A DNA stretch of 64,000 nt from an uncultured Bacteroidota bacterium (GCA_903837285.1 CAILUD010000009.1:3284-67283); one strand, 5' to 3'; shown: positions 14,950-63,392, counted from the first letter of the stretch. Notes: generated by a model from the sequence alone, not told the origin. Translations and numbers: made by a program.

Positions 14950-15684
14950 ATGAAAAAAGTTATACTCTCGTTATGTTTTGTTATAATTGGGTTATCGGTT
15001 TTTTCGCAAAGTCTTCGATTTTCAGTTGGAAGTGGAAGTCATTGTACTTTATTAAATTATGGTGATACTGTAATTGTACAGGATTCAGCACATTTTGGTG
15101 AAATAATTGCTGGTGTAAATGTAAAAAATACATCTTCGAATAGTTTAAATGTAATTTGCAGAAAAAGATATGTTTACAATGTACCAGGTACTGAAAATTA
15201 TTTTTGCTGGGCAGGAGGTTGCTTTCAACCTTCAACAATGGTATCACCATCTGCTTTTGCAATGGCAGCAGGAGATAGCACTACTGAGTTTACTTCTCAT
15301 TACAGTCCTAATGGCAATGGAGGAATAACGGTAGTTAGATTTACTTTTTATGATTCACACACAACAAGCGATAGCGGGTATTTCTTTATTAAATATATTG
15401 GAGTATTAGGTGTAAATGACAATATTTTAGCGTATTCCATCTCTTCACCATATCCAAATCCAGCTAAAGATATTACACATATTAAATATAATGTGAATGT
15501 AAATTCTAAAGCATATATTCAAATTTATAACATCTGTGGTAAAATCGAGAAACAGGTTTATTTAACTGACAATAACGGAATTCTTGATTTGAATGTATCA
15601 AACTTACCTTCAGGAATTTATTTCTGCTCCTTAAACATTAACGGTAAAGCAGTAAGAACAAATAAACTGATAGTTTCACATTAA
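14950..15684 (+). CDS. Small T9SS cargo protein of unknown function
   Basis: Signal peptide and C-terminal sorting domain YPNPAKDITHIKY...LPSGIYFCSLNINGKAVRTNKLIVSH. Confidence 0.7.
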   Translation: MKKVILSLCFVIIGLSVFSQSLRFSVGSGSHCTLLNYGDTVIVQDSAHFGEIIAGVNVKNTSSNSLNVICRKRYVYNVPGTENYFCWAGGCFQPSTMVSPSAFAMAAGDSTTEFTSHYSPNGNGGITVVRFTFYDSHTTSDSGYFFIKYIGVLGVNDNILAYSISSPYPNPAKDITHIKYNVNVNSKAYIQIYNICGKIEKQVYLTDNNGILDLNVSNLPSGIYFCSLNINGKAVRTNKLIVSH

Positions 15685-33234: not shown

Positions 33235-34371
33235 ATGCATCATTTACAAGATTTTTTTGATCCAATAAATGTTAACAATATAGTTGATGAAGACTATATC
33301 GAAAAATCTCGTTTTGCTAATAGGATTTTAATTAATTCTATAAAAAATCCGTTATCAGATCTTGGAAAAGCAAAAATTGCAATATTTGGAGTTTCAAAAA
33401 ATAATAAAGGAGAATTAAATCCGGCAGATTTAGTCAGAAAGTTTTTATACTCTTTTTTTACACCATTTAATGTTAATATTATTGATTTAGGAAATTTAAA
33501 AAAAGGTAAAAATATTAATGATAATTTATATGGTGTTAGGGAAGTAATAAGTTACTTACATTCAAAAAAAATAATTTCAATAATATTAGGCGATAACAAT
33601 AATCTGCCTTTTGCTAGTTATCTTTCTTTTGAAGAAATAAAAAATCCTGTAAACATTGTTTCAATAGATTCTGCAATTTCGTTAAAACAAAAAGAAATAA
33701 AAGAACAAGACATACATTATCTTCCTAAAATTGTACTAAGAAATAACAATAGTCTATTTAATTTCTCATTGCTAGGTTATCAATCTTATTTAGTTTCACC
33801 AGATGACATAAATACTTTAAATCGTTTATTTTTTGATGCAATTAGATTAGGTGTTGTTAAATCAAATATATCCGAAATTGAACCTTTGTTGAGAGATGCA
33901 AATATCGTTGCAATACATTTAAATTCAATACAGGGAAATTTTAACCCTGAAGAAAATTTAATTTCACCAAATGGATTGGATGGACGAGAAATTTGTCAAT
34001 TAGCTAGATATGCAGGTGCCGGAGAAAGAACTTCCAGTTTCGGACTGTACGGCTTAAAAAACAATAATAGTGAAGCAATTCTTACTGCACAGGCAATCTG
34101 GTATTTTTTGGAAGGTTTTTCGCAACGAACAAATGAAATTCCTTCAAAAAAAGCAAAATCAATATTAAAATTTCATGTCGAAGTAGGAAAAGACACTTCA
34201 ATAACTTTCTTTAAAAGTTCAAAATCCGAAAGATGGTGGATGGAAGTTCCATACCCGAAATCAGGTTTTTCAAAAAGCTTAATTATATCTTGCTCATACT
34301 CAGACTATCAAAAAGCCTGCAATGGTGAAGTTCCGGATAGATGGTGGAAATTTTTTCAAAAAATATGCTGA
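33235..34371 (+). CDS. Arginase/formiminoglutamase-fold protein with substituted metal ligands, plus a W-rich C-terminal extension
   Basis: The spacing of ILGDNNNL (GGDHS position), VSIDSAIS (DAHxD position) and VAIHLNSIQ (SxDxD position) fits the ureohydrolase fold, but the ligand residues are replaced. Confidence 0.45.
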   Translation: MHHLQDFFDPINVNNIVDEDYIEKSRFANRILINSIKNPLSDLGKAKIAIFGVSKNNKGELNPADLVRKFLYSFFTPFNVNIIDLGNLKKGKNINDNLYGVREVISYLHSKKIISIILGDNNNLPFASYLSFEEIKNPVNIVSIDSAISLKQKEIKEQDIHYLPKIVLRNNNSLFNFSLLGYQSYLVSPDDINTLNRLFFDAIRLGVVKSNISEIEPLLRDANIVAIHLNSIQGNFNPEENLISPNGLDGREICQLARYAGAGERTSSFGLYGLKNNNSEAILTAQAIWYFLEGFSQRTNEIPSKKAKSILKFHVEVGKDTSITFFKSSKSERWWMEVPYPKSGFSKSLIISCSYSDYQKACNGEVPDRWWKFFQKIC

Positions 34372-34665
34372 AAAACAAAAATTAGCACAACATTTGAAAA
34401 CATTCTTGCGTTAATAATTCAGAATTTTATTAAAAGTTCTTAAAAAATATTAATAATCAAATAAAAATATTTTAATTAAAAAAAAACAGATAAATGCCAA
34501 CAAAACAAAACCTTTCTAAACTCTTCACGTACAAAGTTGAAAATTTTAGTGAGTTATTAACTTAAAAGTGTTGGTAATATTTGGTTGTAAAGAATATTTT
34601 TATTTACTTTACCAAGTGATAAAGTGAACATTAAACATAACAAACAGAGAAGTAAATATTTGAAT

Positions 34666-35613
34666 ATGAGGAAATTATTTTCTCTTTTTATCTTAGTTTT
34701 TGCGGGTTTTAGCCTGTTAGCACAGCAAGATCCCCAATTAAGCTTAAATAAATACAATATTTTACCGGTAAATCCAGGATTCGCTGGTAGTAACGAAGCT
34801 ATTTGTGCATCAATGCTATATCGTCAGCAATGGATGGGTTTTGATGGCGCACCTAAAACAATGATTTTTAGTGGCGACATGGCCATTCCAAGCATTAGTA
34901 GTGGCGTTGGTATAAACATAATGAACGATAAGCTTGGTTTCGAGAAGAATACATATTTAAACTTGTCATACGCATATAGATTACAAATTGGTGATGGTTC
35001 TTTAGGAATTGGCTTAGGATTAGGTTTTTTAAATAAATCTTTAGATGGAGAATGGATTACACCTGATCAACTTAGTAATCCAGGAACCAACCCTTATTTA
35101 GATCCTTTAATTCCTCATTCAGAAAACAAATTTGTACTGGATGCAAATTTTGGACTTTTTTATCGTGCAAAAGGTGATAAAATATACGGTGGTATTTCTT
35201 CAACTCACCTTACCCAACCAGATTTAAAATATTCAGCAGGTAAAATGCCTTTTGTGGCAAGACATTATTATGTTATTGTTGGTTCTTTTATACAATTACC
35301 TGATAAAAACTGGGGTTTAATTCCATCAGCTTTTATTAAATCAGATGGTAGAACTAATCAATATGACATAAATGCTATGATAGAATACCGCAAACAATTT
35401 AGAGGCGGCATTTCTTATCGCTTTGGCGATGCTATTATAGCAATGGTAGGTTTTACAACACAATCAAATATTACTTTTGCTCTTGCTTATGATATAACTA
35501 CTTCTAAACTTAAATCATATTCAAGTGGGTCAATTGAGTTTATGGCAAAATATTGCTTTAATCTTAAAAAACCTAATGGTAGAGGTAAATATGGTAGTGT
35601 TAGATTTTTATAA
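34666..35613 (+). CDS. porP: PorP/SprF-family T9SS outer-membrane protein
   Basis: LLAQQDPQLS...NPGFAG signature and its position directly upstream of gldK. ATG 34666 is preferred over the track start at 34624. Confidence 0.85.
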   Translation: MRKLFSLFILVFAGFSLLAQQDPQLSLNKYNILPVNPGFAGSNEAICASMLYRQQWMGFDGAPKTMIFSGDMAIPSISSGVGINIMNDKLGFEKNTYLNLSYAYRLQIGDGSLGIGLGLGFLNKSLDGEWITPDQLSNPGTNPYLDPLIPHSENKFVLDANFGLFYRAKGDKIYGGISSTHLTQPDLKYSAGKMPFVARHYYVIVGSFIQLPDKNWGLIPSAFIKSDGRTNQYDINAMIEYRKQFRGGISYRFGDAIIAMVGFTTQSNITFALAYDITTSKLKSYSSGSIEFMAKYCFNLKKPNGRGKYGSVRFL

Positions 35614-35656
35614 ATTTTAATGAAAATTATAAGTTCTCATAATTAATAAATGTCCT

Positions 35657-37066
35657 ATGAAAACTTTATTGTTAATCTTGTTTCTTTTCCTTGCAGTAGT
35701 TGGTCTAAACAGTTGCTCCAATACCGGTAACGGCGAATTAGTTGGAGTACCCAATCGCGTGGACTGGTTTGAACCGCAACCATATGGTATGCTGTTCTGC
35801 CAAGCTGGTAGTTATAACATGGGTCCTGATGATCAGGATGTTCCATGGGCTATGACTGCCGAAACTAAAACAGTTTCTATTGCTCCATTTTGGATGGACG
35901 AAACCGAAATCACAAACAACGAATATCGTCAGTTTGTTAATTGGGTTCGCGATTCTATTGCTGCAAAGCTACTTGGAACTCAAATAGAAGAGTTTTTAAT
36001 CACTGAAAATGAATACGGCGAAGAAGTAAATCCTCCATTTATTAATTGGGAAGAACAAATTAAATGGAAAGATCCTGAACAACGCGAAATTCTTAACGAA
36101 ATGTTCTTACCAGAACACGAACGTTTTTATCGTCGTAAAGAACTTGATACCAGAAAATTAAATTTCGAATATTTCTGGATAGATTTAAGGCAGGCTTCAA
36201 AGAAGTTTGATTTTAATAGCGAAGCTCGTCGTGCCTGGAATGCTGATGAAAATAAATATGATGGTCAGGTAACCGATTACAACTACAAAAGTGCGACAAA
36301 AGGTCAAAATATTGATGTTAAAGATCGTTCATCATATATCGTTCGCGATGTTGTAAATGTATACCCAGATACACTCTGTTGGTTAAGTGATTTTACATAT
36401 TCGTTTAATGAGCCTATGGCAAATTATTTCTGGCATCCTGCTTATGACAATTATCCTGTTGTTGGAGTTACATGGAGACAAGCCCGTGCATTCTGTACTT
36501 GGAGAACTCAATTATTAAATAGTTTCTTTCTTGAGTCAATGGGTGAACCATTTGTTCAGGATTATAGACTTCCAACTGAATCAGAATGGGAATATGCTTC
36601 AAGAGGTGGATTAAAAGGTGCAATGTATCCTTGGGGAGGTTACTATACTCAAAATTATAAAGGTTGCTATATTGCAAACTTTAAACCAATGCGTGGTAAT
36701 TACACAGCTGATGGTGGAATTTATCCATTAGTTGTTGCGAGTAATGATCCTAACGAATGGGGATTATATGATATGGGAGGTAATGTTTCTGAATGGACTA
36801 ACAATGCCTTTGATGAATCAGCATATAGCTGGACAGATGACTTAAATCCAGATTATCAATATGAAGCATTACCTGATGATCCACCTGTACGTAAACGTAA
36901 AATTATTCGTGGTGGTTCATGGAAAGACATTTCATATTATATGCAATGTGGTACACGTTCTTACGAATATCAGGATTCTGCAAAATCATATATAGGTTTC
37001 CGTTGCGTACGTCATTATTTAGGACGCGACTTTAACGATGCAGGTTCAGGCTCACAAGTATATTAA
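35657..37066 (+). CDS. gldK: T9SS/gliding lipoprotein GldK (PorK)
   Basis: Lipobox GLNSCSN and FGE/SUMF1-like motifs RGGSWKD and GFRCV. Confidence 0.9.
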   Translation: MKTLLLILFLFLAVVGLNSCSNTGNGELVGVPNRVDWFEPQPYGMLFCQAGSYNMGPDDQDVPWAMTAETKTVSIAPFWMDETEITNNEYRQFVNWVRDSIAAKLLGTQIEEFLITENEYGEEVNPPFINWEEQIKWKDPEQREILNEMFLPEHERFYRRKELDTRKLNFEYFWIDLRQASKKFDFNSEARRAWNADENKYDGQVTDYNYKSATKGQNIDVKDRSSYIVRDVVNVYPDTLCWLSDFTYSFNEPMANYFWHPAYDNYPVVGVTWRQARAFCTWRTQLLNSFFLESMGEPFVQDYRLPTESEWEYASRGGLKGAMYPWGGYYTQNYKGCYIANFKPMRGNYTADGGIYPLVVASNDPNEWGLYDMGGNVSEWTNNAFDESAYSWTDDLNPDYQYEALPDDPPVRKRKIIRGGSWKDISYYMQCGTRSYEYQDSAKSYIGFRCVRHYLGRDFNDAGSGSQVY

Positions 37067-37124
37067 TTAAATTTGGCTGTAAAATAAATAATAAATATTG
37101 TCTAAACTTTAAAACTTTAACACT

Positions 37125-38123
37125 ATGGGATTTAGTATTGGCGAATTGGTTCAAACCAGAGGTTGGAAAAACTTCATGTCGAAAGTTTATGGCTTTGGTG
37201 CTGCAGTAGTACTAGTTGGAGCTATGTTTAAAATTATGCACTGGCCTGGTTCAGGTACTATGCTTGTAATCGGACTAAGTGTTGAAGCATTTATATTTTT
37301 CACTTCGGCTTTTGAGCCACTTCACTCAGAATGGGATTGGAGTTTAGCATATCCAGAATTAGCGGGTATGCATGACGATATTGAAGATCATGATTTAAAA
37401 AACAAAGGCGTTGATTCTAAAAAAACAGCTCTTGAAAAATTTGATGCATTAATTAATAATGCAGAAATTACACCTGAGTTATTCGAAAAATTAGGTAACG
37501 GACTTCGTTCATTGAATGAAACTACAGAGAAACTTTCAGATGTTTCTGAAGCTTCTGTAGCAACAAATAATTATGTAGCTAGCTTTGAAAAAGCTTCTAA
37601 TAAAGTAAATGAGTTTGCAGACCTATATGGTAAATCTGCTCAGGATTTAAATAACTCAGCAAGTGGCTTAGCTAAATCTTATGAAAAATCTGCCGAAATT
37701 GTTGCTGGTTCAGTTGGAACATTTGCAGATACAATGTCACAAAGTGGAACAAAAGTAGCTGTAATGATTACTGAGTCTGGAAAAAATTTATCAGAATCAT
37801 ATGGCAGACTTGCTGATGCAATGAATGCTGAGTTTGAAAACACAAAATCAGGCTCAAAAAATTATGGTGAGCAATTGGTAGTAATGTCAAAAAATCTTAC
37901 AGCATTAAATTCAGTATACGAATTACAACTTCAAGGTACAAACGAACATCTCGAATCCGCAAAAACATTATTTAGCGGTATGGAAGATATTATGATTAAC
38001 ATGAAAAATTCAGCTGACGATGTTAAAAAATATCGTGAAGAAATTTCTAAGTTAGGCCAAAATCTAACAGCTATGAACACAATTTATGGCAATATGCTTT
38101 CTGCTATGAATTTTTCAAAATAA
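37125..38123 (+). CDS. gldL: T9SS/gliding motor protein GldL (PorL)
   Basis: Two N-terminal TM helices with GAMFKIMHWPG, followed by a long helical cytoplasmic region. Confidence 0.9.
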   Translation: MGFSIGELVQTRGWKNFMSKVYGFGAAVVLVGAMFKIMHWPGSGTMLVIGLSVEAFIFFTSAFEPLHSEWDWSLAYPELAGMHDDIEDHDLKNKGVDSKKTALEKFDALINNAEITPELFEKLGNGLRSLNETTEKLSDVSEASVATNNYVASFEKASNKVNEFADLYGKSAQDLNNSASGLAKSYEKSAEIVAGSVGTFADTMSQSGTKVAVMITESGKNLSESYGRLADAMNAEFENTKSGSKNYGEQLVVMSKNLTALNSVYELQLQGTNEHLESAKTLFSGMEDIMINMKNSADDVKKYREEISKLGQNLTAMNTIYGNMLSAMNFSK

Positions 38124-38168
38124 TTTTTTATAAACAGAGTTGTAATTGATATAAAAGAATATTAGAAT

Positions 38169-39836
38169 ATGGGTGCAACAAATTGTCCGGAAACCCCGAG
38201 GCAGAAAATGATAGGAATGATGTATCTCTTTTTAACGGCTATGCTTGCATTGAACGTTTCAAAGGAAATTCTTAACGCTTTCGTTATTGTAAACAAAGGA
38301 CTTCAGCAAACAAATGCGAATTTTACACAACGAAATGGTTTTACTTATCAAGCCTTAGCTTTTGCAAAAGGTAATGATGCTAAAAAAGTAACTCCATACT
38401 ATGATGCTGCTAATGTTGTTAAAAAACTTTCCGAAGATTTAGATATTTACATTAGAGATTTAAAAGTAAAAATAATTGTAGATGCTGATGGCGTTTCTAA
38501 TGATTCAGCATTAGCATTTGAAAAAGATCTTATAAAGCTTTCAGCAAAGGATTCCAGAGAAGCTGGACAACGAGTAATGCTTAGCGATGCAAGTGATGGT
38601 TCTAAAGGTGAAGCCAGAATTTTAAAAGGTAAATTAAATGATTTTAAAAAGAAAGCTTTAGAATTACTAAAAGATCCTAAAATTATTTTAGATAAAAAAG
38701 ATACCATTATTTCTAAATTGGGTAATTTAGGTATAAGTACAGAGGATTCTGAATTTAATCCGGATAAACCAGATGAAAAATTTTGGGAAAATAGATTATT
38801 TTCAGAATTACCTTGTGCTGCAACCATAACTCTTTTAACTCAAATTCAAAATCAGGTTAAAAATGCAGAAGCTGCTGTAATTCAAACTTTATATGGTGGT
38901 ATTGGTTCTACAGATATTAAATTTGACGTTGTAGCTCCACGTGTAATACCAAAAAGTAATTATATAATTCAGGGCGACTCATATGAAGCCGAACTATTTA
39001 TTGCTGCTTATAGTTCTACCGATACTACATCGCAAGTTATAATTGGAGAATCTTACGATTCTGTAAAAAATGTAATTAATAATCCATCGGCTACTATTAA
39101 TTTTAAAGATGGTATTGGTAAATACATTGTTCCAAATGCAGGTGGCGGTGCACATTCTTATGCTGCTATGATTAAAGTATTTAATGCTACAACCGGAGTT
39201 ATGACAAGCTACCCTGTAAAATCAGGTGGAAAATATAGTATTGAATATAACGTAGCACCTCCTATGGCGGTAGTTTCGCCAACCAAAATGAATGTTCTTT
39301 ATATTGGTGTTGACAATCCACTTGAAATTTCTGTTCCTGGTTTTAGAGACGATCAGGTATCAGCAAGTTGCTCGGGTGGTTCTCTTTCTAAATCTGGAAA
39401 AGGTTGGGTTGCAAGGGTTACTAAAGTAGGAAAATGTAATATTTCAGTTCAGGCAAAAGATGATAAAGGTGGTTCAAAATCTATGGGTTCTAAAGAATTT
39501 AGAGTAAAAAGAGTTCCTTTACCAGTTCCTACATGTAATAAACAAAAAAGTGGTACTATATCTAGAGGTATGCTACAAGCTCAATCGGGACCAATGGCAA
39601 CACTTGAAAATTTTGACTTCGAATTAAAATATACTGTTGTTAGCTTTACTGTTTCAGCAAATATTGGTGGATTTGAGCAAAATCCAGCTTCTCAGAGCGG
39701 AAAATTTACTCCACAACAGCTTGATTTAATCGGTAAAGTTCCAAAAGGTAAAAAAGTTTATATTGAAAACGTAAGAGCTAAAGGACCTGATGGAACAGTA
39801 AGTGATATTGGCACAATTTCATTTAAAATACAATAG
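38169..39836 (+). CDS. gldM: T9SS/gliding protein GldM (PorM)
   Basis: N-terminal MIGMMYLFLTAMLALNVSKEIL and a periplasmic multi-domain body. Confidence 0.9.
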   Translation: MGATNCPETPRQKMIGMMYLFLTAMLALNVSKEILNAFVIVNKGLQQTNANFTQRNGFTYQALAFAKGNDAKKVTPYYDAANVVKKLSEDLDIYIRDLKVKIIVDADGVSNDSALAFEKDLIKLSAKDSREAGQRVMLSDASDGSKGEARILKGKLNDFKKKALELLKDPKIILDKKDTIISKLGNLGISTEDSEFNPDKPDEKFWENRLFSELPCAATITLLTQIQNQVKNAEAAVIQTLYGGIGSTDIKFDVVAPRVIPKSNYIIQGDSYEAELFIAAYSSTDTTSQVIIGESYDSVKNVINNPSATINFKDGIGKYIVPNAGGGAHSYAAMIKVFNATTGVMTSYPVKSGGKYSIEYNVAPPMAVVSPTKMNVLYIGVDNPLEISVPGFRDDQVSASCSGGSLSKSGKGWVARVTKVGKCNISVQAKDDKGGSKSMGSKEFRVKRVPLPVPTCNKQKSGTISRGMLQAQSGPMATLENFDFELKYTVVSFTVSANIGGFEQNPASQSGKFTPQQLDLIGKVPKGKKVYIENVRAKGPDGTVSDIGTISFKIQ

Positions 39837-39840
39837 GGTT

Positions 39841-40719
39841 ATGAAAAAAGTAATTTTAGCTCTAACAATTGCCGTATTTTTTGCTCCTTTTGCCAAAGCA
39901 CAAGTGAGCGATGTATTAGACGGAGTTTATGTAAAGGAACATGTTCCTGCGCGTAAACCAGTACCATACCATCATTTACGTGAAGCGGATATGATGTGGT
40001 CGAAAAAAATATGGAGGATGTTGGATCTACGGGAAAAAATTAATCACCCTCTTTATTATCCTACAGCTAAAATGGATGATAGATACAGTTTGATTGATTT
40101 ATTAATATATGGTGTAGAATCAGAAGGATTAGTTGTATATAACACTAGTGACGATGAGTTTACAACTCCAATGACTTCTAAAGAAATTGATGATAACTTT
40201 GGAGTTAAAGTTGATACCGTTTATATTGACAACGAAGAAACAGGTGGTCAAGATATGAAGGTAATAGACAATCCTAGAACCACATCCGAGGTTACAAGAT
40301 TACTAATTAAAGAAGTTTGGTATTTTGATAAACAACGAGCTATGCTTGAAGTTAGAATTGTAGGTTTATGTCCTATTAGAATGTATGAAAAACAAGCAAC
40401 AGTTGTAGAAACGGCTCCTGATGAAGGCGAAGGAGAAGAAAAAGAATTAACTGCTAAACAAATTTTTTGGGTATATTTCCCTTCTGCACGCCCTTTACTT
40501 GCTAATCATGAGGTATTTAATTCAAATTCAGATTCTGAACGAAGAACTTTTGATGATATTTTCTTTAAACGTCGTTTTAGCAGTTATATATATCAAGAAA
40601 CCAACGTTTATGACAACCGCCGTATTGGTGAATTTAAATATGGACTAGATGCTTTAACTGAGTCAGATAACATTAAAGATTTTGTTTTCAAATTCGAACA
40701 CGACTTGTGGGAGTACTAA
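39841..40719 (+). CDS. gldN: T9SS/gliding periplasmic ring protein GldN (PorN)
   Basis: Signal peptide MKKVILALTIAVFFAPFAKAQ and READMMWSKKIWRMLDLREKINHPLYYP. The track start at 39802 overlaps gldM and is rejected. Confidence 0.9.
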   Translation: MKKVILALTIAVFFAPFAKAQVSDVLDGVYVKEHVPARKPVPYHHLREADMMWSKKIWRMLDLREKINHPLYYPTAKMDDRYSLIDLLIYGVESEGLVVYNTSDDEFTTPMTSKEIDDNFGVKVDTVYIDNEETGGQDMKVIDNPRTTSEVTRLLIKEVWYFDKQRAMLEVRIVGLCPIRMYEKQATVVETAPDEGEGEEKELTAKQIFWVYFPSARPLLANHEVFNSNSDSERRTFDDIFFKRRFSSYIYQETNVYDNRRIGEFKYGLDALTESDNIKDFVFKFEHDLWEY

Positions 40720-45407: not shown

Positions 45408-45415
45408 TAATTTTG
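45408..45415 (+). promoter_or_regulatory. -7 box TAATTTTG for the cheR-like operon
   Basis: Exact match 19 nt upstream of ATG 45435. Confidence 0.4.
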
Positions 45416-45434
45416 AAGTGTTAAATGTTTTTCA

Positions 45435-46274
45435 ATGGATATACACGACGAAGAAATAAAAGAATTTATAGAAATTTTTGCTTCACTTTCTACTTATAAT
45501 TTTTCTGACTACTCCGAGAAATCTTTTAGGAGGCGAATGGAGAAAATTGTAAATGATAATAATTGTTCGCTCTCTGATATTATTAAAAAAGCTAAAAACA
45601 ATACTACGTTTTTAGAAAAAATTGTTCGCGATATTACTGTTAATACAACAGAACTTTTTAGAGATCCTAAAGTCTGGCTCGAAATTCAAAAAGAAATTAT
45701 TCCCAAATTAAAAGAATTAGATACAATAAACTTATGGCATGCAGGATGTTCTTCTGGTCAAGAACTATATTCTATGCTAATGTTTATGAATGAAAATGGC
45801 TTATTAGAAAAAACCAGAACAATTGGCACAGATATTAATACTGAAATTTTGGAAGAAGCAGCAAAAGGAAATTATAAATACCGTTTTAATGTTGAATATC
45901 TTCCAAATTTTGATCAGGTATTAAACGTTATTCAAGAGAAAGAAAAAATTCCATATTCAAAATATATGGATATTGACCAATCAAAAGATTCAATAAAAAT
46001 AAAGCCTTTCTTATTAAATAAAGCTGAGTTTTTGAAACACGATTTAGTTAAAGATAAAAATGTTTTCGGAAGAAAATTCGATTTTATAATATGTCGTAAT
46101 GTGCTAATATATTTCAACAACAACTTACAGAATAAAATCTTTGATATGTTTTGGGATAATTTAAATGAAGGAGGATTTTTGGTTATTGGTCTTCACGAAA
46201 GCATTATGGGCTCAACATCGGCTAAATTTATAAAAAAAGGACAGTGCTACATTAAAAAATCAGCAAACGGGTAA
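45435..46274 (+). CDS. cheR: CheR-type protein-glutamate O-methyltransferase
   Basis: CheR N-domain followed by TELFRDPKVW, LWHAGCSSGQELYS and FDFIICRNVLIYFN. Confidence 0.85.
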   Translation: MDIHDEEIKEFIEIFASLSTYNFSDYSEKSFRRRMEKIVNDNNCSLSDIIKKAKNNTTFLEKIVRDITVNTTELFRDPKVWLEIQKEIIPKLKELDTINLWHAGCSSGQELYSMLMFMNENGLLEKTRTIGTDINTEILEEAAKGNYKYRFNVEYLPNFDQVLNVIQEKEKIPYSKYMDIDQSKDSIKIKPFLLNKAEFLKHDLVKDKNVFGRKFDFIICRNVLIYFNNNLQNKIFDMFWDNLNEGGFLVIGLHESIMGSTSAKFIKKGQCYIKKSANG

Positions 46275-46282
46275 GCGCAAAT

Positions 46283-47134
46283 ATGTTAAAAAACTTCACT
46301 CACACAACTCCAAGTATTATTGAAGAAAACACAGCGCAAAGAATAAAAGAAATTATATCGAACGAGTTTTCAGTTGATTTAACACATATCGAAAATTTTG
46401 TATTTAGAAGAAGAATCTCTGTTGCTTTATCTTTTCTTAAAATTATACCCGAAAAGTTAATTGAAAATACTCAGAAATTAGACAAAAATAAAGTTGATAT
46501 TTTAATGCATTTTTTATATCCCGGCGAAAATGAATTATTTCGCGACACCGAAACATGGATTTTTTTACGGGATAAAATATTAACTGAATTAATAAATAAT
46601 AACAAGCCAAAAGTATTATTTTATAACACTACTTCAGGCGAGGATATTTATAGTTTTTTAATTTTAATAAATGAATTTTTTCCGAATAACAATATCGAAT
46701 TAACAATTTTAAGCCCATCAGAGTATTCTTTAAAAAATATTGCTGAAGGAAAACTTGCTCAACCCAAAAATCGATCATCTCATTTAAATTTCAAAGTAAT
46801 ATTATCTAATAATGAAATATCTAAATACCTTGATTTAAATAACAACGTATTATCGTTTAAAAAGAATTATTTAAATAACATTATATACACATTACACACA
46901 GACCAACAAGCCATAAACATTTCCGACTTCGATATAGTAATGTGCAGAAATAAATCATTACCATTTGCAACAGATAGCATTAACTTGATTTTTAATGAAA
47001 TTATTTCAATACTAAAACCAAAAGGTTATTTAGTAATTGGGATTAACGAAAATTTACCAAAAGAATTTTTAAATTTATTTAATGTAGTTTCTAAAAACGA
47101 AAAGGTTTTCATAAAAAAGCTAAATGACAAATAA
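46283..47134 (+). CDS. Divergent CheR-like paralog with degenerate SAM-binding motifs
   Basis: ELFRDTETW is retained. The AGCSxGxE position reads YNTTSGEDIYS, and CRNVLIYF reads CRNKSLPF. Confidence 0.65.
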   Translation: MLKNFTHTTPSIIEENTAQRIKEIISNEFSVDLTHIENFVFRRRISVALSFLKIIPEKLIENTQKLDKNKVDILMHFLYPGENELFRDTETWIFLRDKILTELINNNKPKVLFYNTTSGEDIYSFLILINEFFPNNNIELTILSPSEYSLKNIAEGKLAQPKNRSSHLNFKVILSNNEISKYLDLNNNVLSFKKNYLNNIIYTLHTDQQAINISDFDIVMCRNKSLPFATDSINLIFNEIISILKPKGYLVIGINENLPKEFLNLFNVVSKNEKVFIKKLNDK

Positions 47135-47696
47135 AGCAATTGTTATAGGTGGATCGGCAGGAAGTTTTAAAATTGTAATGAAAATTATTTCATTACTTCC
47201 TAAAAAAATTGATATCCCTATTTTTATTTGTTTACATAGATTGCGTTCTGCCAGAAAAGGTTTTGCAGAAACACTGCAGATTAATTCATCAATAAAAATC
47301 ATCGAACCTACTGACAAAGAAATTATTGAATCTAACAATATATATATTGCTCCAGCAAACTATCACATGTACATTTTACAAAATGGAAGAATTGGCTTAT
47401 CAATAGAAGAAGAATTAAATCATTCCAGACCATCTATTGATTTAACCTTTATAACTGCGGCAGAATATTATAAAGAAAATTTACTTGGCATAATCTTATC
47501 AGGCGCAAATGATGATGGTGCCGATGGTTTTAAGAAAATAAAAAGGAATAATGGTAAAACAATAGCTCAAGATCCTCAAGAATGCGAAGTTTCTGTAATG
47601 CCATTATCTTGCATAAAGAATAATAGCACAGATAAAATATTAACTATTAAAGAAATAATTAAAGAGATACAATTTTTTATATCCTTTAACATTTGA
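47124..47696 (+). CDS. cheB: CheB-type methylesterase catalytic domain, no receiver domain
   Basis: AIVIGGSAGS, ICLHRL, RPSIDLTF and ILSGANDDGADG...TIAQDPQECEVSVMP. There is an 11-nt overlap with the upstream ORF. Confidence 0.85.
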   Translation: MTNKAIVIGGSAGSFKIVMKIISLLPKKIDIPIFICLHRLRSARKGFAETLQINSSIKIIEPTDKEIIESNNIYIAPANYHMYILQNGRIGLSIEEELNHSRPSIDLTFITAAEYYKENLLGIILSGANDDGADGFKKIKRNNGKTIAQDPQECEVSVMPLSCIKNNSTDKILTIKEIIKEIQFFISFNI

Positions 47697-47748
47697 TTAC
47701 TATTTTTAAAAACTTTTCCATAACTTTAAGCCAAAATTAAATGAAAAG

Positions 47749-48324
47749 ATGGCAGTTGTAACGTCTAACCAACTTTCTTTTCTCTCTTTGCTAAAGGAAT
47801 TTGAACCTACAGTTCTTATTTCTAACACTATTTTATATTATGAAGGCGAAGTAAACCATGAAGTTACTAAAGCTCTTACTTATACTTCAGAAAAACACTT
47901 AAGTGAAAATGAAGAGAACAGAATGGTTCAAAAGAAATTGTTTAATGTAATGATTGAATGCCTTCAAAATATTGACAAACATGCTCTTGAGTTTGCAATT
48001 TCAGGTAATTACATTACTAAAAAAGGTGCTATTTTAGTTGCTGAGTACAGTGATTCTTATTGCATTTTAGCCGGAAATCCTGTCGACAAAAAACAAATGG
48101 ACGCATTAACTTTGATAATCAATAATTTACAGTTCAGGAAAAAAGAAGACCTTCGTCATTTATATAAAAAACAACTCGAAAATGGTATGCTTTCAGAAAA
48201 AGGTGGAGCGGGTTTAGGTTTTATTGATATGGCTCGCAAAACTGGTAATCCTTTACATTTTTCATTTTTCCCATTAGAAGGCGATTTATCATTTTTTGCA
48301 TTAAAAATTCGAATAACTAAATGA
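47749..48324 (+). CDS. SiaB-like / anti-sigma-factor-type GHKL Ser/Thr kinase
   Basis: N-box-like ECLQNIDKHA and G2-box-like EKGGAGLGFIDMARKTG, in about 190 aa. Confidence 0.6.
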   Translation: MAVVTSNQLSFLSLLKEFEPTVLISNTILYYEGEVNHEVTKALTYTSEKHLSENEENRMVQKKLFNVMIECLQNIDKHALEFAISGNYITKKGAILVAEYSDSYCILAGNPVDKKQMDALTLIINNLQFRKKEDLRHLYKKQLENGMLSEKGGAGLGFIDMARKTGNPLHFSFFPLEGDLSFFALKIRITK

Positions 48325-48330
48325 TTAACT

Positions 48331-48717
48331 ATGGAAGCAATTAATATTAATTTCACAAACGATACCCCTCAAATCATTCTTAATAAAGACAATAATCAAT
48401 TTGAGATTACTGGTAAAAGCTTACCCGAAGATGTTAATTCATTTTATGAGCCAGTATTTAAATGGTTTGAAAATTACTTCCAAAACCCCAATCCAAAAAC
48501 AGTATTGGTTTTCAATCTTGATTACCTTAATACAGCATCATCAAAATCACTTCTTTCGCTTTTTTTAATTTTAGAAAATGCCATTGTAGCTGGCCACCAG
48601 GTTGAAGTTGTATGGCAATATCTTGTTGACGACGAAGATATGTTTGATGTAGGCGAAGAATATTCAGAAATAATAAAAGTACCATTTAGTTTTGTTCCCT
48701 TAGAAGTAGAAGACTAA
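48331..48717 (+). CDS. SiaC-like (DUF1987-type) regulatory phosphoprotein
   Basis: 128 aa, with PQIILNKDNNQFEITGKSLPEDV...FYEP and LDYLNTASSKSLL. It lies 6 nt after the kinase gene. Confidence 0.6.
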   Translation: MEAININFTNDTPQIILNKDNNQFEITGKSLPEDVNSFYEPVFKWFENYFQNPNPKTVLVFNLDYLNTASSKSLLSLFLILENAIVAGHQVEVVWQYLVDDEDMFDVGEEYSEIIKVPFSFVPLEVED

Positions 48718-49945: not shown

Positions 49946-52270
49946 ATGCGAACTCTAATTTGTGCTTTATTAATATTTTATACTTTTCAAGGAAAAAGTC
50001 AAGTTCCAGTTGGTAAATGGCGTGCGCACTTACCATATTCCACAGGAATTAATGTAGAACAAGCTGGCGATAGAACTTATTGCTTGTCTACTGGTGGCCT
50101 ATTTGTTTATTCTACTTCTGATAATTCAGCAACTACACTAACTAAAATTAACGGATTATCGGACGTTGTTATAAGCGCATTACAATTTATACCAGAAAAA
50201 AACACATTAGTTATTGGATATGAAAATGGAAATATTGATTTAATAAAAAACAATACTATTTATAATATCTCTGATATTTATAGAAAACAGTTAACTGGCA
50301 ATAAAGCTATTAATAACATTAACTTTATTAATGGCATTACATATTTATCTTGCGGTTTTGGAATAGTAATTTTAGATATAGATAAAAATGAAATTAAAGA
50401 CACATATTTTATTGGGCTAAATGGAACCTATTTAGATGTTTTGGAAATTTGCTCTGATAACGTAAACCTTTATGCTGCAACATCTACAGGTATTTACAAA
50501 GCTCTAGAAAGCAATGAGAATCTAGTAAACTTTGCAAATTGGTCTTTAATAACTGATATTCCAAATTATAACAAAAATTTCAATCACATTGTTTTTTTTG
50601 ATAACCATATTATAACAACGTATAGCAACAGTGCATGGAACAAAGACACAGCCTATATTTATAATAATTCATATTGGGCGAAATTTGATACGAGTATGAA
50701 ACAGATTAATAATATGATTGTTTCTGGCAATAAATTAATTATTATTAGCGAAAATTCTTTTAAAACATATAGCTCTTTTTCAGATTTAACCGGAGCAGTT
50801 TATTATGGTTTTTCTTCAGCTGGTTCGGCACCAAGAGACGCTGAATTTTCAAGTGATGGTACTTTATGGATTGCAGATAATATATCAGGATTAGTTTGGT
50901 TAAAACCTGGCGCATACATTTATGAATTCACTTCACCGAACGGACCTGCACAAACAAGCGCTAAAAGTGTTGTAGCAACAAAAGACGAAGTTATTATAGT
51001 CCCAGGCGGGCGTGATCCTTCATGGAATAATTTATGGAATTCTGGTGCAATTTATTGGTTCAAAAATCAAAAATGGACAAATCTTTCTGCTAGTCAGGTT
51101 CCTGAATTAGAAACGCTAAAAAGTCCAGATATATGCGAAATTGCAGTAAACCCAGTAAATTCAAAACAAGTATTTTTTGGCTCGTATGGCGGTGGAGTTC
51201 TTGAATTTAATAACGGAAGCTATACAGCACACTTTACCGAAACTAATAGTAGCTTACAAAATATTTTCCCAGGAAGTCCATATTTAAGAATTGGCGGCAT
51301 TGCAGTTGATGAAGACGAAAACTTATGGGTAACATGTTGTGGAGTTCAAAATTCAGTATCAGTTAAAAATAAAAATGGAACATGGAAAGGTTTTGCTCTT
51401 GGCAATGACATGGGAGTATCTGATATTGGAAAAATAATTTGCGCTAAAAATGGCATTAAATGGATTATATTACCCAGAGGTAGAGGACTTTTTGCATTTA
51501 ACGAAAATGAAACCATTGATAATACAAGCGATGACAAAAAGAAATATGTTAGCGTTATGGATGAAAATGGTGATGTTATTGCAAATGATATTCATGCAAT
51601 TGCTGAAGATAAAGAAGGCTTAATATGGGTTGGAACAAATAAAGGTATAGTATTTTATTATAATCCCGAAAATGTTTTTGAAAGCACTGCTTTCTATGCT
51701 CAGCAAATTAAAATTCCTAATGAAAATCCAGGGCAGGCAAATTTTCTTCTCGAAGCAGAAACTGTTACTGCCATTGCAATTGACGGTGCAAATCATAAAT
51801 GGTTTGGAACCGAAAATGGTGGAGTATTTATGATGTCGGCAGATGCTACAAAAGAACTTTTGCACTTTACTAAAGAAAATAGTCCTTTATTATCTAATTC
51901 TATTCTTGGTATAACAATAGAACCAAATTCAGGCGAAGTATTTTTTGCAACAGATAAAGGTGTTATTTCATACAGATCAACAACTACCGAAGGTGAGGAA
52001 TCTTTTCATAATGTATATGCGTTTCCAAACCCAGTAAAACCAGGCTACGAAGGTCTAATTGCAATCACTGGATTGGTAACTGACGCAGATATTAAAATTT
52101 CTGACATAGCAGGTAATGTTGTATATCAAACAAAAGCTGAGGGCGGACAAGCAACATGGAATGGGAGAAAATTCAGTGGCGAAAAAGTGCAGACCGGAGT
52201 GTATTTGGTTTTTTGTAGTAATGATGATGGATCGAAAACCTATATCACCAAAATATTATTTATCAATTAA
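49946..52270 (+). CDS. PorZ-like T9SS protein: double beta-propeller (two-component-regulator propeller type) plus C-terminal sorting domain
   Basis: 774 aa with a signal peptide and repeated ...GL..(F/Y)... propeller blades. The C-terminus reads VYAFPNPVKPGYEGLIAITGL...TGVYLVFCSNDDGSKTYITKILFIN. Confidence 0.55.
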   Translation: MRTLICALLIFYTFQGKSQVPVGKWRAHLPYSTGINVEQAGDRTYCLSTGGLFVYSTSDNSATTLTKINGLSDVVISALQFIPEKNTLVIGYENGNIDLIKNNTIYNISDIYRKQLTGNKAINNINFINGITYLSCGFGIVILDIDKNEIKDTYFIGLNGTYLDVLEICSDNVNLYAATSTGIYKALESNENLVNFANWSLITDIPNYNKNFNHIVFFDNHIITTYSNSAWNKDTAYIYNNSYWAKFDTSMKQINNMIVSGNKLIIISENSFKTYSSFSDLTGAVYYGFSSAGSAPRDAEFSSDGTLWIADNISGLVWLKPGAYIYEFTSPNGPAQTSAKSVVATKDEVIIVPGGRDPSWNNLWNSGAIYWFKNQKWTNLSASQVPELETLKSPDICEIAVNPVNSKQVFFGSYGGGVLEFNNGSYTAHFTETNSSLQNIFPGSPYLRIGGIAVDEDENLWVTCCGVQNSVSVKNKNGTWKGFALGNDMGVSDIGKIICAKNGIKWIILPRGRGLFAFNENETIDNTSDDKKKYVSVMDENGDVIANDIHAIAEDKEGLIWVGTNKGIVFYYNPENVFESTAFYAQQIKIPNENPGQANFLLEAETVTAIAIDGANHKWFGTENGGVFMMSADATKELLHFTKENSPLLSNSILGITIEPNSGEVFFATDKGVISYRSTTTEGEESFHNVYAFPNPVKPGYEGLIAITGLVTDADIKISDIAGNVVYQTKAEGGQATWNGRKFSGEKVQTGVYLVFCSNDDGSKTYITKILFIN

Positions 52271-59751: not shown

Positions 59752-59900
59752 ATTTATCATCATGTTAACTTGGTTTAAAATTCAAAACATAATCTAAATC
59801 GTTTTAAAAATAAAAATATTCTTTGATTTTAAATTAAAACAATTAATTATTCTGTAACTTTACAATGAAAAAGGAATTACATTTTAATAATATATTTACT

Positions 59901-62900
59901 ATGAGGAAAATAATTTTTACTCTTGCATTTGCAATTATGGCTTCTGGTCTTTTTGCTCAAAAAGTTCATACTATATCTTTATTAAATTCTACTAATGAAT
60001 TTTCGGTTATAAAAAATGAACCCTTGCAATTTAAATTCAAATCTTCGTTTTCTTCTTTAAAAACCAAGGAAATTGTAACCAAAGAAGGTTTTTTTATCCA
60101 AATAAACACAGAAGAGCTTGTTAACGAAGGAGAAAACGGTTCACCTTCTCTACCTGTCTTAAAAAGGTTAATTGAAGTTCCATTCAATTCTGATGTAAAA
60201 GTAAATATTGTAAGTTTTGACGAAGAAATAATTTCTTTAAATGACCTTGGAATAATTTATAAAATTATACCTCAACAGCCATCAGTAAGAAAAGATCAAA
60301 ATGTTGCCGATTTACCTTTCCATTATAATCAGCAAATTTATTCTACAAACGATTTTATTGAAAATGCTATTGGAGAATATCAACCAGTAGGAATTATGCG
60401 TGGTGTAAATATTGGGAGAATTGTTATAAGACCTGTTCAATATAACCCTGCACAAAACACGATTAGAATTTTAAAAAATATTGTAGTAGAAGTTACTTTC
60501 AAAAATGCTGATTTAGTAAAAACTGAAAGCATGAGAACTAAATACTATTCTCCAATGTTTGAGAGCAGTTGCAAGATGTTAGCAAACTACAATAAATCTA
60601 CAGCAAAAGATAATATTACTATTTATCCTGTAAAATATTTAATTATCAGTCATCGTATGTTTGAAGCGCAGATTCAACCTTTTATTCAATGGAAAACACG
60701 TAAAGGTTTTAAAGTTACTGTTGCATATACTGATGTTATTGGAACCACAACAACTGCAATAAAAAGTTATATAACTGCTCAATATACCGGAGGTACACCA
60801 ACCAACCCTGCTCCTAGTTATATTTTACTTATTGGGGATGTTGCTCAAATTCCTGCATTTACTGGCTCTGCTCTTGCTGCAGCTAGTCCAACCGATTTAT
60901 ATTATGGCGAAATGGATGGAGGCTCTGATGTAATTCCAGATATTTATTATGGTAGATTTTCTGCTCAAAATGCAGATCAGCTTGCGCCACAACTTGCAAA
61001 AACATTACAATACGAACAATACACAATGCCAGATCCAAGCTTTTTACAATATTCTGTTTTAGTTGCGGGTGTTGATGGATCAAATGCTGCGACATACGGT
61101 AACGGACAAATTAATTACGCAAATTTATATACTAATGCCTCAAACGGAATTACCCCAATTAATTACCTTTATGGTTCAGGGTCACCAATAATATCTAACA
61201 GTACCGCTGCCGCACCTGCAATTCATCAAAACGTAAGCGATGGCGCTGGCTTTGTAAATTATACTGCACATTGTGGCTCAGATGGCTGGTCGGATCCTAG
61301 CTTTAATACATCTCATGTAGCGGCTCTAACTAATCAGGATAAATATTGCTTTATGATTGGCAATTGCTGTCAGAGTAATATGTTTTCTGTTGCAGAATGT
61401 TTTGGCGAAGCTATACTTCGCGCCCCGAATAAAGGTGCAGTAGGATATATAGGCGCTTCCGATTTTTCTTACTGGAATGAAGATTACTATTTTGCAGTAG
61501 GTTTTAAAACAGTAATTTCAAATCCTGTTTACGATGCAAGTAAGTTAGGATTTTACGATAAATTATTTCATTCAAATGGCGAAGCTGAAACTGACTGGCA
61601 TGTAAGCGCCGGTCAATTAATGCATGGAGGAAATTTAGCCGTTACACAAGGAGGAACTAGTGTAACATATTACTGGGAAGAATATCATCTTATGGGCGAT
61701 CCATCACTTATGCCATATTTAGGAGTTCCAACAACTTTATCGGCAACTTATCTTACTTCTGTCCCAATGGGCGTAACATCAGTTGCTGTTGCAACAGAAC
61801 CTTATGCATATGTTGGACTATCACTAAACAATGTATGGATTGATGCTAAATACACTGGTGCTTCGGGAAATATCAGTTTAGATTTAACAACAATTGCAGC
61901 ACCTTGCACATTAGATGTTGTAATTACTAAACAAAACCGCCAGCCAAATATTGGAACTATTGTTATTGTTCCAAATAGTGCACCTTATGTGGTTTATAAC
62001 ACACATGTTTTACACGATGCTGGAGTTACAGTAAATGGTAACGTAGAATATTCTGAAACTGTAAACATGGATTTAACTTTAAGAAATGTTGGTAGTGTAA
62101 ATGCCACCGGAGTAAATGCAGCACTTTCAACAACTAACACAAATATTAATATTACAGATAATTATCAACCATTCGGGAATATTAATGCAACTGCTACAGC
62201 AACCCAAAACAATTCTTTTGCATTTAATGTTGCTAATGTAATTCCCGACCAACAAATTGTACAATTTGTAGTTACTGCAACAGACGCTACAGCAAATACA
62301 TGGACAACTAATTTTAATGTAACTTTAAATGCTCCTGTTTTGCAAGCAACAACAGTAGTTATTGATGACGTTGCAACTGGAAACGGAAACGGAAGACTTG
62401 ATCCTGGCGAAACTGTAACAATAAAAATATTAACATTAAACAATGGACATGCTGTTTCACCATCTGCAAATACTACTTTAACATTAAATAGTGGAGCAGT
62501 TTCAATTCCATCAAACACTCAAAATATTGGTGCCATTGTTGCCAGTGGAAGTGTTCAGGCTATTTATACTGTAAATGTTAATGCCGGCGCAACTGTTGGT
62601 TCTACTGCTTCATTTACCTTTGATGTTAATGCCGGAGGTTATACTGCTACAAAATCATTTGTATTAACAATCGGATTAATTGTTGAAGATTTTGAATCGA
62701 ATACTTTTACCGAATACCCATGGAATTTGACACAAATCGGAAATGCACCTTGGACTATTATTAACAGTGGTAGTATATATGAAGGAGCTTATTCTGCCCG
62801 TTCAGGAATAATTGGCAACATTGCAACATCTGAACTAACAATGCAAATTAATGTTTTATCTGCTGACAGCATTTCGTTTTATAAAAAGGTAAACAGCGAA

Positions 62901-63392
62901 CAAGATTATGACTTCTTAAAATTTTATATTGATGGAATTGAACAAGATCAATGGAGTGGCATAATTGACTGGAGTCGTGAAGCATATATGATGGCTACCG
63001 GAATACACACAATTAAGTGGATTTATTCTAAGGATTATTCTGTTGCTCCAACTGGTGATGGATCATGGGTAGATTTTGTTATATTCCCTCCTATTAACTT
63101 GCCTTTAACTCAAGCTGAAATCAATAACAATCTACAATATTTCAGCTCATATCCTAATCCATTTAATTCTGAATCAATAATTTCTTATAGTCTAATTAAA
63201 TCTGATAACATTGCAATCAGCTTAATTAATACTTTAGGCGAAACCGTTAAATCTATTTTACCAAAACAAAATATGTCACAAGGCAGTCATCAAATTCAAT
63301 TATCAAGTGAAGGACTTGCTTCAGGAATATATTTATGTAAAATGGAAACTAGCACAGAAACTAAAATGATTAAAATTATTTTATCAAAATAA
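59901..63392 (+). CDS. C25 (gingipain-like) cysteine peptidase with propeptide, Ig-like/adhesin domains and T9SS sorting domain
   Basis: Propeptide-like GSPSLPVLKRLIEVP...; candidate catalytic His in NYTAHCGSDGW and Cys in FMIGNCCQSN; C-terminal YPNPFNSESIISY...ASGIYLCKM...IKIILSK. ATG 59901 (MRKIIFTLAF) is preferred over 59865. Confidence 0.8.
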   Translation: MRKIIFTLAFAIMASGLFAQKVHTISLLNSTNEFSVIKNEPLQFKFKSSFSSLKTKEIVTKEGFFIQINTEELVNEGENGSPSLPVLKRLIEVPFNSDVKVNIVSFDEEIISLNDLGIIYKIIPQQPSVRKDQNVADLPFHYNQQIYSTNDFIENAIGEYQPVGIMRGVNIGRIVIRPVQYNPAQNTIRILKNIVVEVTFKNADLVKTESMRTKYYSPMFESSCKMLANYNKSTAKDNITIYPVKYLIISHRMFEAQIQPFIQWKTRKGFKVTVAYTDVIGTTTTAIKSYITAQYTGGTPTNPAPSYILLIGDVAQIPAFTGSALAAASPTDLYYGEMDGGSDVIPDIYYGRFSAQNADQLAPQLAKTLQYEQYTMPDPSFLQYSVLVAGVDGSNAATYGNGQINYANLYTNASNGITPINYLYGSGSPIISNSTAAAPAIHQNVSDGAGFVNYTAHCGSDGWSDPSFNTSHVAALTNQDKYCFMIGNCCQSNMFSVAECFGEAILRAPNKGAVGYIGASDFSYWNEDYYFAVGFKTVISNPVYDASKLGFYDKLFHSNGEAETDWHVSAGQLMHGGNLAVTQGGTSVTYYWEEYHLMGDPSLMPYLGVPTTLSATYLTSVPMGVTSVAVATEPYAYVGLSLNNVWIDAKYTGASGNISLDLTTIAAPCTLDVVITKQNRQPNIGTIVIVPNSAPYVVYNTHVLHDAGVTVNGNVEYSETVNMDLTLRNVGSVNATGVNAALSTTNTNINITDNYQPFGNINATATATQNNSFAFNVANVIPDQQIVQFVVTATDATANTWTTNFNVTLNAPVLQATTVVIDDVATGNGNGRLDPGETVTIKILTLNNGHAVSPSANTTLTLNSGAVSIPSNTQNIGAIVASGSVQAIYTVNVNAGATVGSTASFTFDVNAGGYTATKSFVLTIGLIVEDFESNTFTEYPWNLTQIGNAPWTIINSGSIYEGAYSARSGIIGNIATSELTMQINVLSADSISFYKKVNSEQDYDFLKFYIDGIEQDQWSGIIDWSREAYMMATGIHTIKWIYSKDYSVAPTGDGSWVDFVIFPPINLPLTQAEINNNLQYFSSYPNPFNSESIISYSLIKSDNIAISLINTLGETVKSILPKQNMSQGSHQIQLSSEGLASGIYLCKMETSTETKMIKIILSK

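Follow-up and report, generated by a model that had tools for sequence, protein, structure and literature searches.

The plus strand of a 64,000-nucleotide stretch of DNA from an uncultured Bacteroidota bacterium (GCA_903837285.1, CAILUD010000009.1:3284-67283; the whole stretch is called the window below) carries, at positions 45435 to 48717, an operon of five packed genes that encode two CheR-type proteins (CheRa and CheRb), a CheB catalytic domain, a SiaB-family kinase, and a SiaC-family phosphoprotein (open reading frames ORF1 to ORF5, in that order). This operon is the minimal form of a widespread and apparently undescribed cluster of seven to eight genes in the Bacteroidales. With a probability of about one half, we read the five genes as a functional, selected, minimal version of this signaling cluster, in which CheRa and CheB act in trans on unlinked sensors. 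Literature searches, which were not exhaustive, on the Bacteroidales cluster, on DUF1987 together with CheR, and on SiaC in Bacteroidetes returned no description of it.

The fuller cluster in the Bacteroidales

A SiaB-family alignment was used to scan one genome per GTDB species, and of at least 594 matching loci the best 80 were retained. Locus ORFs were classed by phmmer seeds, and 60 of the best 80 loci had enough upstream sequence to be counted. Below, K and C denote the genes of the SiaB-like kinase and the SiaC-like phosphoprotein, and S, G, and P denote extra sensor genes, whose architectures were assigned with Pfam and whose transmembrane (TM) segments were judged by eye. In 57 of the 60 loci, CheRa, CheRb, and CheB are joined to G-P-K-C in a single plus-strand cluster of seven to eight genes. 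The order CheRa-S-CheRb-CheB-G-P-K-C was found in 46 of them, and 11 have an S-less but otherwise equal version. Two loci consist of P-K-C only, and one (L057) is minimal, as in the window. A further minimal-type locus among the best 80 (L013) has too little upstream sequence and lies outside the 60. The longer cluster at L012 encodes a SiaB-like protein only 41% identical to that of the window.

The S protein has the architecture TM-HAMP-GAF-helix-PAS-PAS and lacks an output domain, G is TM-GAF, and P is TM-GAF-helix-PAS-PAS-SpoIIE/PP2C, with its gene adjoining K on the upstream side in 57/60 GTDB loci. Neither the window annotation nor the Pfam-annotated neighborhoods showed a SiaD-type cyclase or a GGDEF domain. 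A preliminary description of the window, made from its sequence, had suggested looking for a linked PP2C phosphatase or diguanylate cyclase; the full clusters thus supply the phosphatase, and no locus supplies the cyclase. Downstream of the cluster, approximately 70 loci encode a TerB-ABC_tran-ABC2_membrane protein of about 1020 amino acids (aa), followed by proteins of about 305 aa and 150 aa without a Pfam match (11045-15531 in L012). This trio, absent from the window, comprises candidate outputs of the SiaC-like switch.

ORF1 is orthologous to the first CheR, and ORF2 to the second CheR, of the seven- to eight-gene clusters. The minimal and full clusters occupy the same chromosomal locus, since purQ is the upstream neighbor in the minimal loci as well as in 18 full loci. 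Two loci, L081 and L085 (7229-10960), from a Draconibacterium orientale metagenome-assembled genome (MAG) and a Bacteroidetes MAG, carry PP2C-SiaB-SiaC only, and the 7 kb upstream are free of CheR and CheB.

A candidate methylation helix in the sensors

The P and S proteins share a near-invariant helix directly after the GAF domain, which reads ENEE(E/Q)LRQNAEEMRATQEEL or EQEEEMRQNMEELKATQEE (consensus ESQQMTeELqENEEELRQNAEEMRATQEELEKSNE in P and KSQqQAqEMAEQEEEMRQNMEELKATQEES in S). Its heptad-spaced Glu pairs match the methylation consensus EExxA(S/T) of methyl-accepting chemotaxis proteins (MCPs). In a 63-column segment of the helix alignment, Glu stripes run at a spacing of 7 residues (columns 12, 19, 26, 33, and 40 and columns 25, 32, and 39); the methylation sites 297, 304, and 311 of Tsr are likewise 7 residues apart (PMC1079850). 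Column 26 holds 36 Glu and 30 Gln residues across the orthologs, which is the pattern expected if CheB deamidates an encoded Gln.

The pattern EE[LMIV][RKQ][AST][ST] is present in 61 of 69 P and 46 of 48 S proteins and in none of the 69 G proteins, and elsewhere in the 93 loci and the window it matches a single 69-aa ORF. A looser pattern, EE..[AST][ST], has a background of about 0.07 per 1000 residues versus 1.0 to 1.3 in P and S. The SiaB-like, SiaC-like, and TM-GAF proteins have no conserved methylation sites. The preliminary description had left the methylation target between the kinase/phosphoprotein pair and a sensor encoded elsewhere; because P and S carry a near-invariant MCP-like helix and the SiaB-like and SiaC-like proteins have none, the sensor is much the better supported of the two.

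The helix is also found apart from the methylation genes. The P proteins of L081 and L085 keep the EEMRAT helix with no CheR or CheB adjacent, and at L093 and L094 there are GAF/EE-helix genes with no CheR, CheB, PP2C, K, or C within 8 to 10 kb. A search with a 43-residue helix profile returned 32 short fragments (29 to 76 aa) without domain architectures, two of which were traced to contigs and proved to be broken GAF-helix genes with no CheR or CheB nearby. Two short, broken S-type helix fragments from JGI (P0148 and P0153; QEEEMRQNMEE...) are labeled "methyl-accepting chemotaxis protein," which suggests that automatic pipelines already pick up the MCP-like character of this helix.

The proteins encoded by the operon

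Profile searches agree with the domain calls previously made for ORF1 to ORF5, and the motifs quoted for them align to functional residues of the structures 5FTW, 3SFT, and 6KKO. CheRa matches Pfam CheR (PF01739) with 132.4 bits (threshold, 27; E = 1.7e-38), and its alignment to Bacillus subtilis CheR (5FTW) over residues 17 to 259 retains AGCSSGQE, GTDIN, and CRNVLIYF. With CheR_N, the model of the N-terminal all-alpha domain, it scores 15.6 bits, under the cut-off of 27; the phmmer alignment to 5FTW, which begins at residue 17/13, spans the region of that domain. CheB matches CheB_methylest (PF01339) with 163.8 bits (E = 4.3e-48) over residues 6 to 182 of 190 aa, a span that leaves it without a receiver domain. 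Its Ser (GGSAGS), His (LHRL), and Asp (NDDG) residues align with the triad positions of 3SFT and are kept in the minimal and full clades. Judged from these residues, CheRa and the receiver-less CheB are catalytically intact enzymes.

CheRb also belongs to the CheR family (Pfam CheR, 57.3 bits versus a threshold of 27; E = 1.9e-15), but its S-adenosylmethionine (SAM) motifs are lost: NTTSGED stands in place of AGCSxGxE, and TDIN no longer has its acidic residue (ILSPS). The same losses are seen in 61 full-cluster orthologs, whereas CheRa retains both motifs everywhere, so the degeneracy of CheRb is family-wide and not specific to the window. CheRb is also the fastest-evolving protein of the operon (55% identity versus 85 to 90% for its neighbors, or about 4 times faster), and a word search found seven close homologs. 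It is probably a noncatalytic paralog and may have an adaptor role. Its additional relaxation in the minimal clade would fit the loss of cluster-encoded partners.

ORF4 passes the NCBIfam model SiaB_fam_kinase (145.4 bits; cut-off, 85) and matches Pfam DUF6272 (1.5e-35), and ORF5 matches Pfam SiaC with 127.8 bits (cut-off, 24.5; E = 2.3e-37), which bears out the family placement first proposed for both. The GHKL N-box residues E70 and N74 and the G2 box KGGAGLGF of ORF4 are invariant across 20 homologs. In the alignment to Pseudomonas aeruginosa SiaB (6KKO_A), E70 lies opposite the Glu of the IEMTQNI motif; the predicted catalytic residue of SiaB is Glu61 (PMC7647112), which we infer to be the Glu of this motif. 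Aligned to SiaC (6KKO_C and 6K4F), ORF5 matches YLNT, and its T68 lies opposite T68 of SiaC, the site phosphorylated in the peptide LLYLNTSSIK (PMC7647112). These alignments support a role of ORF4 as a SiaB-type kinase and of ORF5 as its predicted SiaC-type substrate, with Thr68 as the site.

All five proteins are members of these families and not orthologs of the characterized CheR, CheB, SiaB, and SiaC proteins, since they score under the corresponding NCBIfam models: 75 bits for CheRa with the chemotaxis CheR equivalog NF007902 (cut-off, 435), 75.2 bits for ORF4 with the SiaB equivalog NF038264 (cut-off, 225), 83.8 bits for ORF5 with the SiaC equivalog NF038265 (cut-off, 150), and, for CheB, scores below both CheB cut-offs, which are at the subfamily level. 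A 322-aa "SiaB-SiaC fusion" on a Logan contig (P0135) was rejected; it arises from the window sequence when the TGA that ends ORF4 is translated as Trp (ITK-W-LT-MEAIN, 48322-48330) and is a gene-calling artifact. The same artifact also joined SiaB-like and SiaC-like proteins into one 90% cluster.

Conservation of the five-gene form

Conservation of the gene order among relatives had been named beforehand as a test that could refute the idea, and the five-gene order is kept in at least seven related Bacteroidia lineages (including L005, L006, L008, L009, L011, and L013; L006 has a different upstream flank). The identity of the SiaB-like protein to that of the window falls from 89% to 51% across these six loci. 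The ratio of nonsynonymous to synonymous substitution rates (dN/dS) in the unsaturated pair L005/L008 is 0.035 for CheRa, 0.144 for CheRb, 0.048 for CheB, 0.058 for the kinase, and 0.011 for the phosphoprotein. Ranges are 0.14 to 0.27 for CheRb, 0.05 to 0.09 for CheB, and 0.01 to 0.05 for the phosphoprotein, and CheRa gives 0.03 to 0.06 in comparisons that include the window and have a saturated dS. These low values indicate purifying selection on all five genes, by which the operon is maintained. In the metagenome contig L007 (6352-7214), the first CheR is broken into overlapping ORFs of 200 aa and 103 aa but is intact in the near-identical contig L006; the split points to a frameshift error or else to recent pseudogene formation.

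The minimal-type cluster of L057 (CheRa-CheRb-CheB-K-C, 7003-10961) belongs to Bacteroidetes bacterium GWF2_38_335. Its kinase is 40 to 42% identical to that of the window. The cluster lies in unrelated surroundings, with an amino-acid permease gene on the upstream side and, downstream, a gene for a C10 peptidase that bears a type IX secretion system (T9SS) tail, and in the tree it comes off at the base of the clade formed by the full clusters. A midpoint-rooted neighbor-joining tree of CheRa, CheB, K, and C places the window clade and L057 as basal.

A proposed circuit and its alternatives

Outside the operon, no signaling gene of any type was found in the window, be it for an MCP, CheA, CheW, receiver, kinase, PP2C, GAF, PAS, or GGDEF protein, and no EE-helix-bearing protein, in keeping with the earlier remark that substrates, phosphatase, and output are all missing from its 64 kb. 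The full clusters suggest how such parts may work together. Their membrane GAF-PAS-PP2C phosphatase, an analog of SiaA, would oppose the SiaB-like kinase, while CheRa and CheB would act reversibly, by methylation or deamidation, on the heptad-spaced Glu pairs in the helix that follows GAF in P and in the paralogous HAMP-GAF-PAS sensor S. Methylation of the helix would adjust the gain of the SiaC phospho-switch or its adaptation, with CheRb possibly serving as a noncatalytic adaptor. In the window version, the methylation enzymes would most likely work in trans on GAF/signaling-helix sensors encoded elsewhere, and phosphorylated SiaC would be reset by an unlinked phosphatase. CheRa and CheB must have a substrate, because both are strongly constrained, and helix-bearing sensor genes can be unlinked, as P-K-C at L081 and L085 and the GAF-helix genes at L093 and L094 demonstrate.

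A broader proposal is advanced tentatively, at a little under even odds. It envisages a so far undescribed sensory pathway of the Bacteroidales without MCP or CheA, in which CheR and a receiver-less CheB would, through reversible Glu methylation, adapt GAF/PAS sensors, a PP2C phosphatase among them, via an MCP-like helix, and the SiaB/SiaC switch would pass the signal to a non-cyclase output, possibly the TerB-ABC protein. The window would then hold a variant that keeps the adaptation enzymes and the switch as a core, working in trans for sensors at other loci.

Several points count against action in trans on helix-bearing sensors. The methylation of the helix in P and S, and with it the link between enzyme and substrate, is read from sequence comparison. 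The helix could be structural and independent of methylation, since it also occurs in P proteins at loci without adjacent CheR or CheB. An unlinked sensor and an unlinked phosphatase are assumed for this organism, of which the 64-kb window was read. The tree fits a reduced as well as an ancestral minimal form; loss is favored by the PP2C-K-C order, which Pseudomonas apparently has as well. Finally, as the window clade and L057 keep CheR and CheB with SiaB and SiaC in the absence of any sensor, the kinase or the phosphoprotein could be the target.

Targets within the operon are the strongest of the alternatives, although we regard them as unlikely. CheRa and CheB would modify the SiaB-like kinase, the SiaC-like phosphoprotein, or CheRb, and methylation and phosphorylation would converge on the partner switch. 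Besides the linkage in the two sensor-free lineages, this explanation can draw on Salmonella CheR, which methylates the non-MCP protein PhoP at consecutive acidic residues (PMC8546571), and on a conserved acidic C-terminal segment of the SiaC-like proteins, DDEDM..GEEY. However, EE..[AST][ST] occurs in just 2 of 93 K, 1 of 92 C, and 4 of 76 CheRb proteins, and the Glu-rich loop of the kinase, SENEEN, varies even inside the minimal clade. The GEEY segment looks structural, because it has the counterpart AEEF in P. aeruginosa SiaC, and the siaABCD operon as described is without CheR and CheB.

It is improbable, too, that CheRa and CheB serve another class of substrate, with the EE helix as a structural coiled coil and the linkage as a matter of coregulation. 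The helix motif in P proteins without adjacent CheR or CheB and in GAF-helix genes at unrelated loci would agree with this, as would the sequence-derived nature of the enzyme-substrate link. Against it, the motif is practically confined, across the 93 loci, to the two sensor families whose genes are interleaved with CheR and CheB, the helix fits the MCP consensus and spacing with Glu/Gln alternation, and the precedent of RsbK (see below) favors helix methylation.

Decay of the operon after deletion of the sensor, phosphatase, and transporter genes, so that it no longer signals, has very little probability. In its favor, three sensor genes and three downstream genes of most relatives are missing, CheRb evolves about 4 times faster than its neighbors, and the first CheR of L007 lies in two ORFs, but dN/dS is 0.01 to 0.06 in four genes and 0.14 in CheRb where dS is unsaturated, ORFs and catalytic residues are intact in at least seven lineages down to 51 to 70% identity, and the promoter box is conserved. 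The same low standing applies to the view that the operon supplies ordinary chemotaxis adaptation enzymes for MCP/CheA/CheW arrays encoded elsewhere; CheR and CheB form the classic adaptation pair, and genomes often have their MCP genes dispersed, yet this CheB lacks the receiver domain that couples to CheA, both enzymes score far below the cut-offs of the canonical NCBIfam models (the CheR equivalog and the CheB subfamily), neither the window nor the annotated neighborhoods of L005, L006, L008, L009, and L012 contain an MCP, CheA, or CheW gene, and in relatives the enzymes sit among GAF sensors.

Comparison with described systems

The adaptation of chemoreceptor arrays by CheR and CheB is textbook biology, and to our knowledge the phylum Bacteroidetes largely lacks chemotaxis systems. 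The Bacteroidales clusters share the enzyme families of canonical chemotaxis and, in their candidate helix, EExxA(S/T) sites 7 residues apart with Glu/Gln alternation, as in Tsr/Tar. They differ in that no MCP signaling domain, CheA, or CheW accompanies the enzymes in the window or in the annotated related neighborhoods, and in that the enzymes are presumed to act on GAF/PAS sensors and a phosphatase. Since their CheB has no receiver domain, phosphorylation feedback would be absent.

The closest described logic is that of Bacillus cereus RsbM/RsbK-RsbY-RsbV/RsbW. In this species the S-helix of RsbK, a CHASE3-HAMP-GAF hybrid kinase that has been found genomically associated with CheR, is methylated by RsbM. 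RsbK controls the PP2C phosphatase RsbY and the RsbV/RsbW switch in the sigma-B pathway, and, according to the authors, RsbM is an orphan methyltransferase that has no methylesterase as its partner (PMC4574943, PMC12848376). As proposed here, a methyltransferase acts on a non-MCP sensor, the methyl-accepting helix directly follows HAMP-GAF, and a PP2C phosphatase acts with a kinase/phosphoprotein partner switch. In the Bacteroidales clusters, however, a single protein joins the PP2C domain to the GAF-helix-PAS sensor, CheR occurs as two paralogs, one of them degenerate, and the switch is of the SiaB/SiaC (DUF6272/DUF1987) and not of the RsbW/RsbV type, with no sigma factor. CheB is always present, compared with no esterase for RsbM, and this dedicated receiver-less CheB would make the methylation reversible. 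The window itself lacks sensor and phosphatase, and only in related loci does the methyltransferase gene stand beside that of a HAMP/GAF helix sensor. The earlier statement that the circuit could not be matched to a described one thus holds for the cluster itself, of which we found no description, but not for its logic, which RsbM/RsbK matches in part.

ORF4 and ORF5 are homologs of SiaB and SiaC of P. aeruginosa SiaABCD, and in the full clusters a membrane PP2C gene precedes K and C, as the operon name implies for SiaA. In contrast to SiaABCD, no locus has a SiaD cyclase, CheR and CheB genes are interleaved, and the phosphatase, which the window lacks, contains GAF, helix, and PAS modules in the relatives.

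Outside chemoreceptor arrays, RsbM/RsbK is the sole characterized case of sensor-helix methylation that we found, and it has no esterase. If the circuit proposed here is correct, reversible methylation adaptation would extend to Ser/Thr phospho-switch signaling, for CheR, CheB, MCP-like helices, a sensor phosphatase, and a SiaB/SiaC switch occur together in dozens of Bacteroidales species. The candidate methylation sites are defined (the EE pairs and one Glu/Gln position), which makes the idea directly testable. The operon of the window is a natural dissection that reveals which parts stay together without sensors, phosphatase, and transporter.

Operon layout and genomic surroundings

The five ORFs lie where the preliminary description had placed them, with the spacings that it gave (an 8-nt gap, an 11-nt overlap, a 52-nt gap, and a 6-nt gap, from ORF1 to ORF5), and the -7 box that it named is present (Table 1). 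TAnnTTTG, the pattern of this box, is not enriched in the AT-rich window (103 matches versus about 120 expected), and the count alone is not significant. A TAnnTTTG box is found 24 to 30 nt ahead of the first ATG in six orthologous loci (L005, L008, L006, L013, and L011 among them), which supports a real promoter. Scans for terminators, sigma-70 promoters, and Rfam families returned nothing, and no terminator-like site was seen 3' of ORF5.

Table 1. Coordinates of the operon and its candidate promoter in the window
Feature	Position	Strand	Basis and remarks
TAATTTTG, candidate Bacteroidetes-type -7 promoter box	45408..45415	+	20 nt 5' of the ORF1 ATG; putative function
CheRa (ORF1), predicted intact CheR-type glutamate O-methyltransferase, 279 aa	45435..46274	+	Pfam CheR and 5FTW alignment
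CheRb (ORF2), degenerate CheR paralog, 283 aa, probably not SAM dependent	46283..47134	+	Pfam CheR; motifs lost
CheB catalytic domain without receiver (ORF3), predicted methylesterase/deamidase, 190 aa	47124..47696	+	Pfam CheB_methylest; 3SFT triad
SiaB-family GHKL Ser/Thr protein kinase (ORF4), 191 aa	47749..48324	+	NCBIfam SiaB_fam_kinase; Pfam DUF6272
SiaC-family (DUF1987) phosphoprotein (ORF5), 128 aa, Thr68 in YLNT	48331..48717	+	Pfam SiaC

The operon is flanked by purQ on one side and by an ilvE-type aminotransferase gene, followed by PorZ, on the other, and the rest of the window holds housekeeping and T9SS/gliding genes; the purQ and ilvE flanks and the gliding/T9SS genes had been noticed before and are seen in the annotation. 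Two TAnnTTTG boxes lie within the 3' end of ORF5 (48639-48694, plus strand), 77 to 132 nt 5' of the ilvE-type gene, which may for this reason have its own promoter instead of depending on read-through from the operon.

T9SS/gliding genes and cargo were located at 34624-40719, 49946-52270, 12842-15684, and 59865-63392. The T9SS block comprises PorP/SprF, a GldK-like protein (FGE-sulfatase), GldL, GldM, and GldN, with PorZ just 3' of the operon, and the gldLMN-to-PorZ synteny around the operon recurs in L005, L008, and L009. Por_Secre_tail sorting domains are found in Omp28, a C25 (gingipain-type) peptidase, and other proteins of the window. Between the topoisomerase gene and porP/sprF lies a 378-aa ORF (33235-34371, plus strand) with no Pfam match and no identical gene product on record. 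On the minus strand, an ORF of at least 2176 aa (1-6529) runs past the left end of the window with only weak TPR, PD40, and SPOR matches; at 1054-1836 its DNA is repeated in tandem (135, 51, and 423 nt), and the strong negative AT skew over the first 6 kb is due to this gene.

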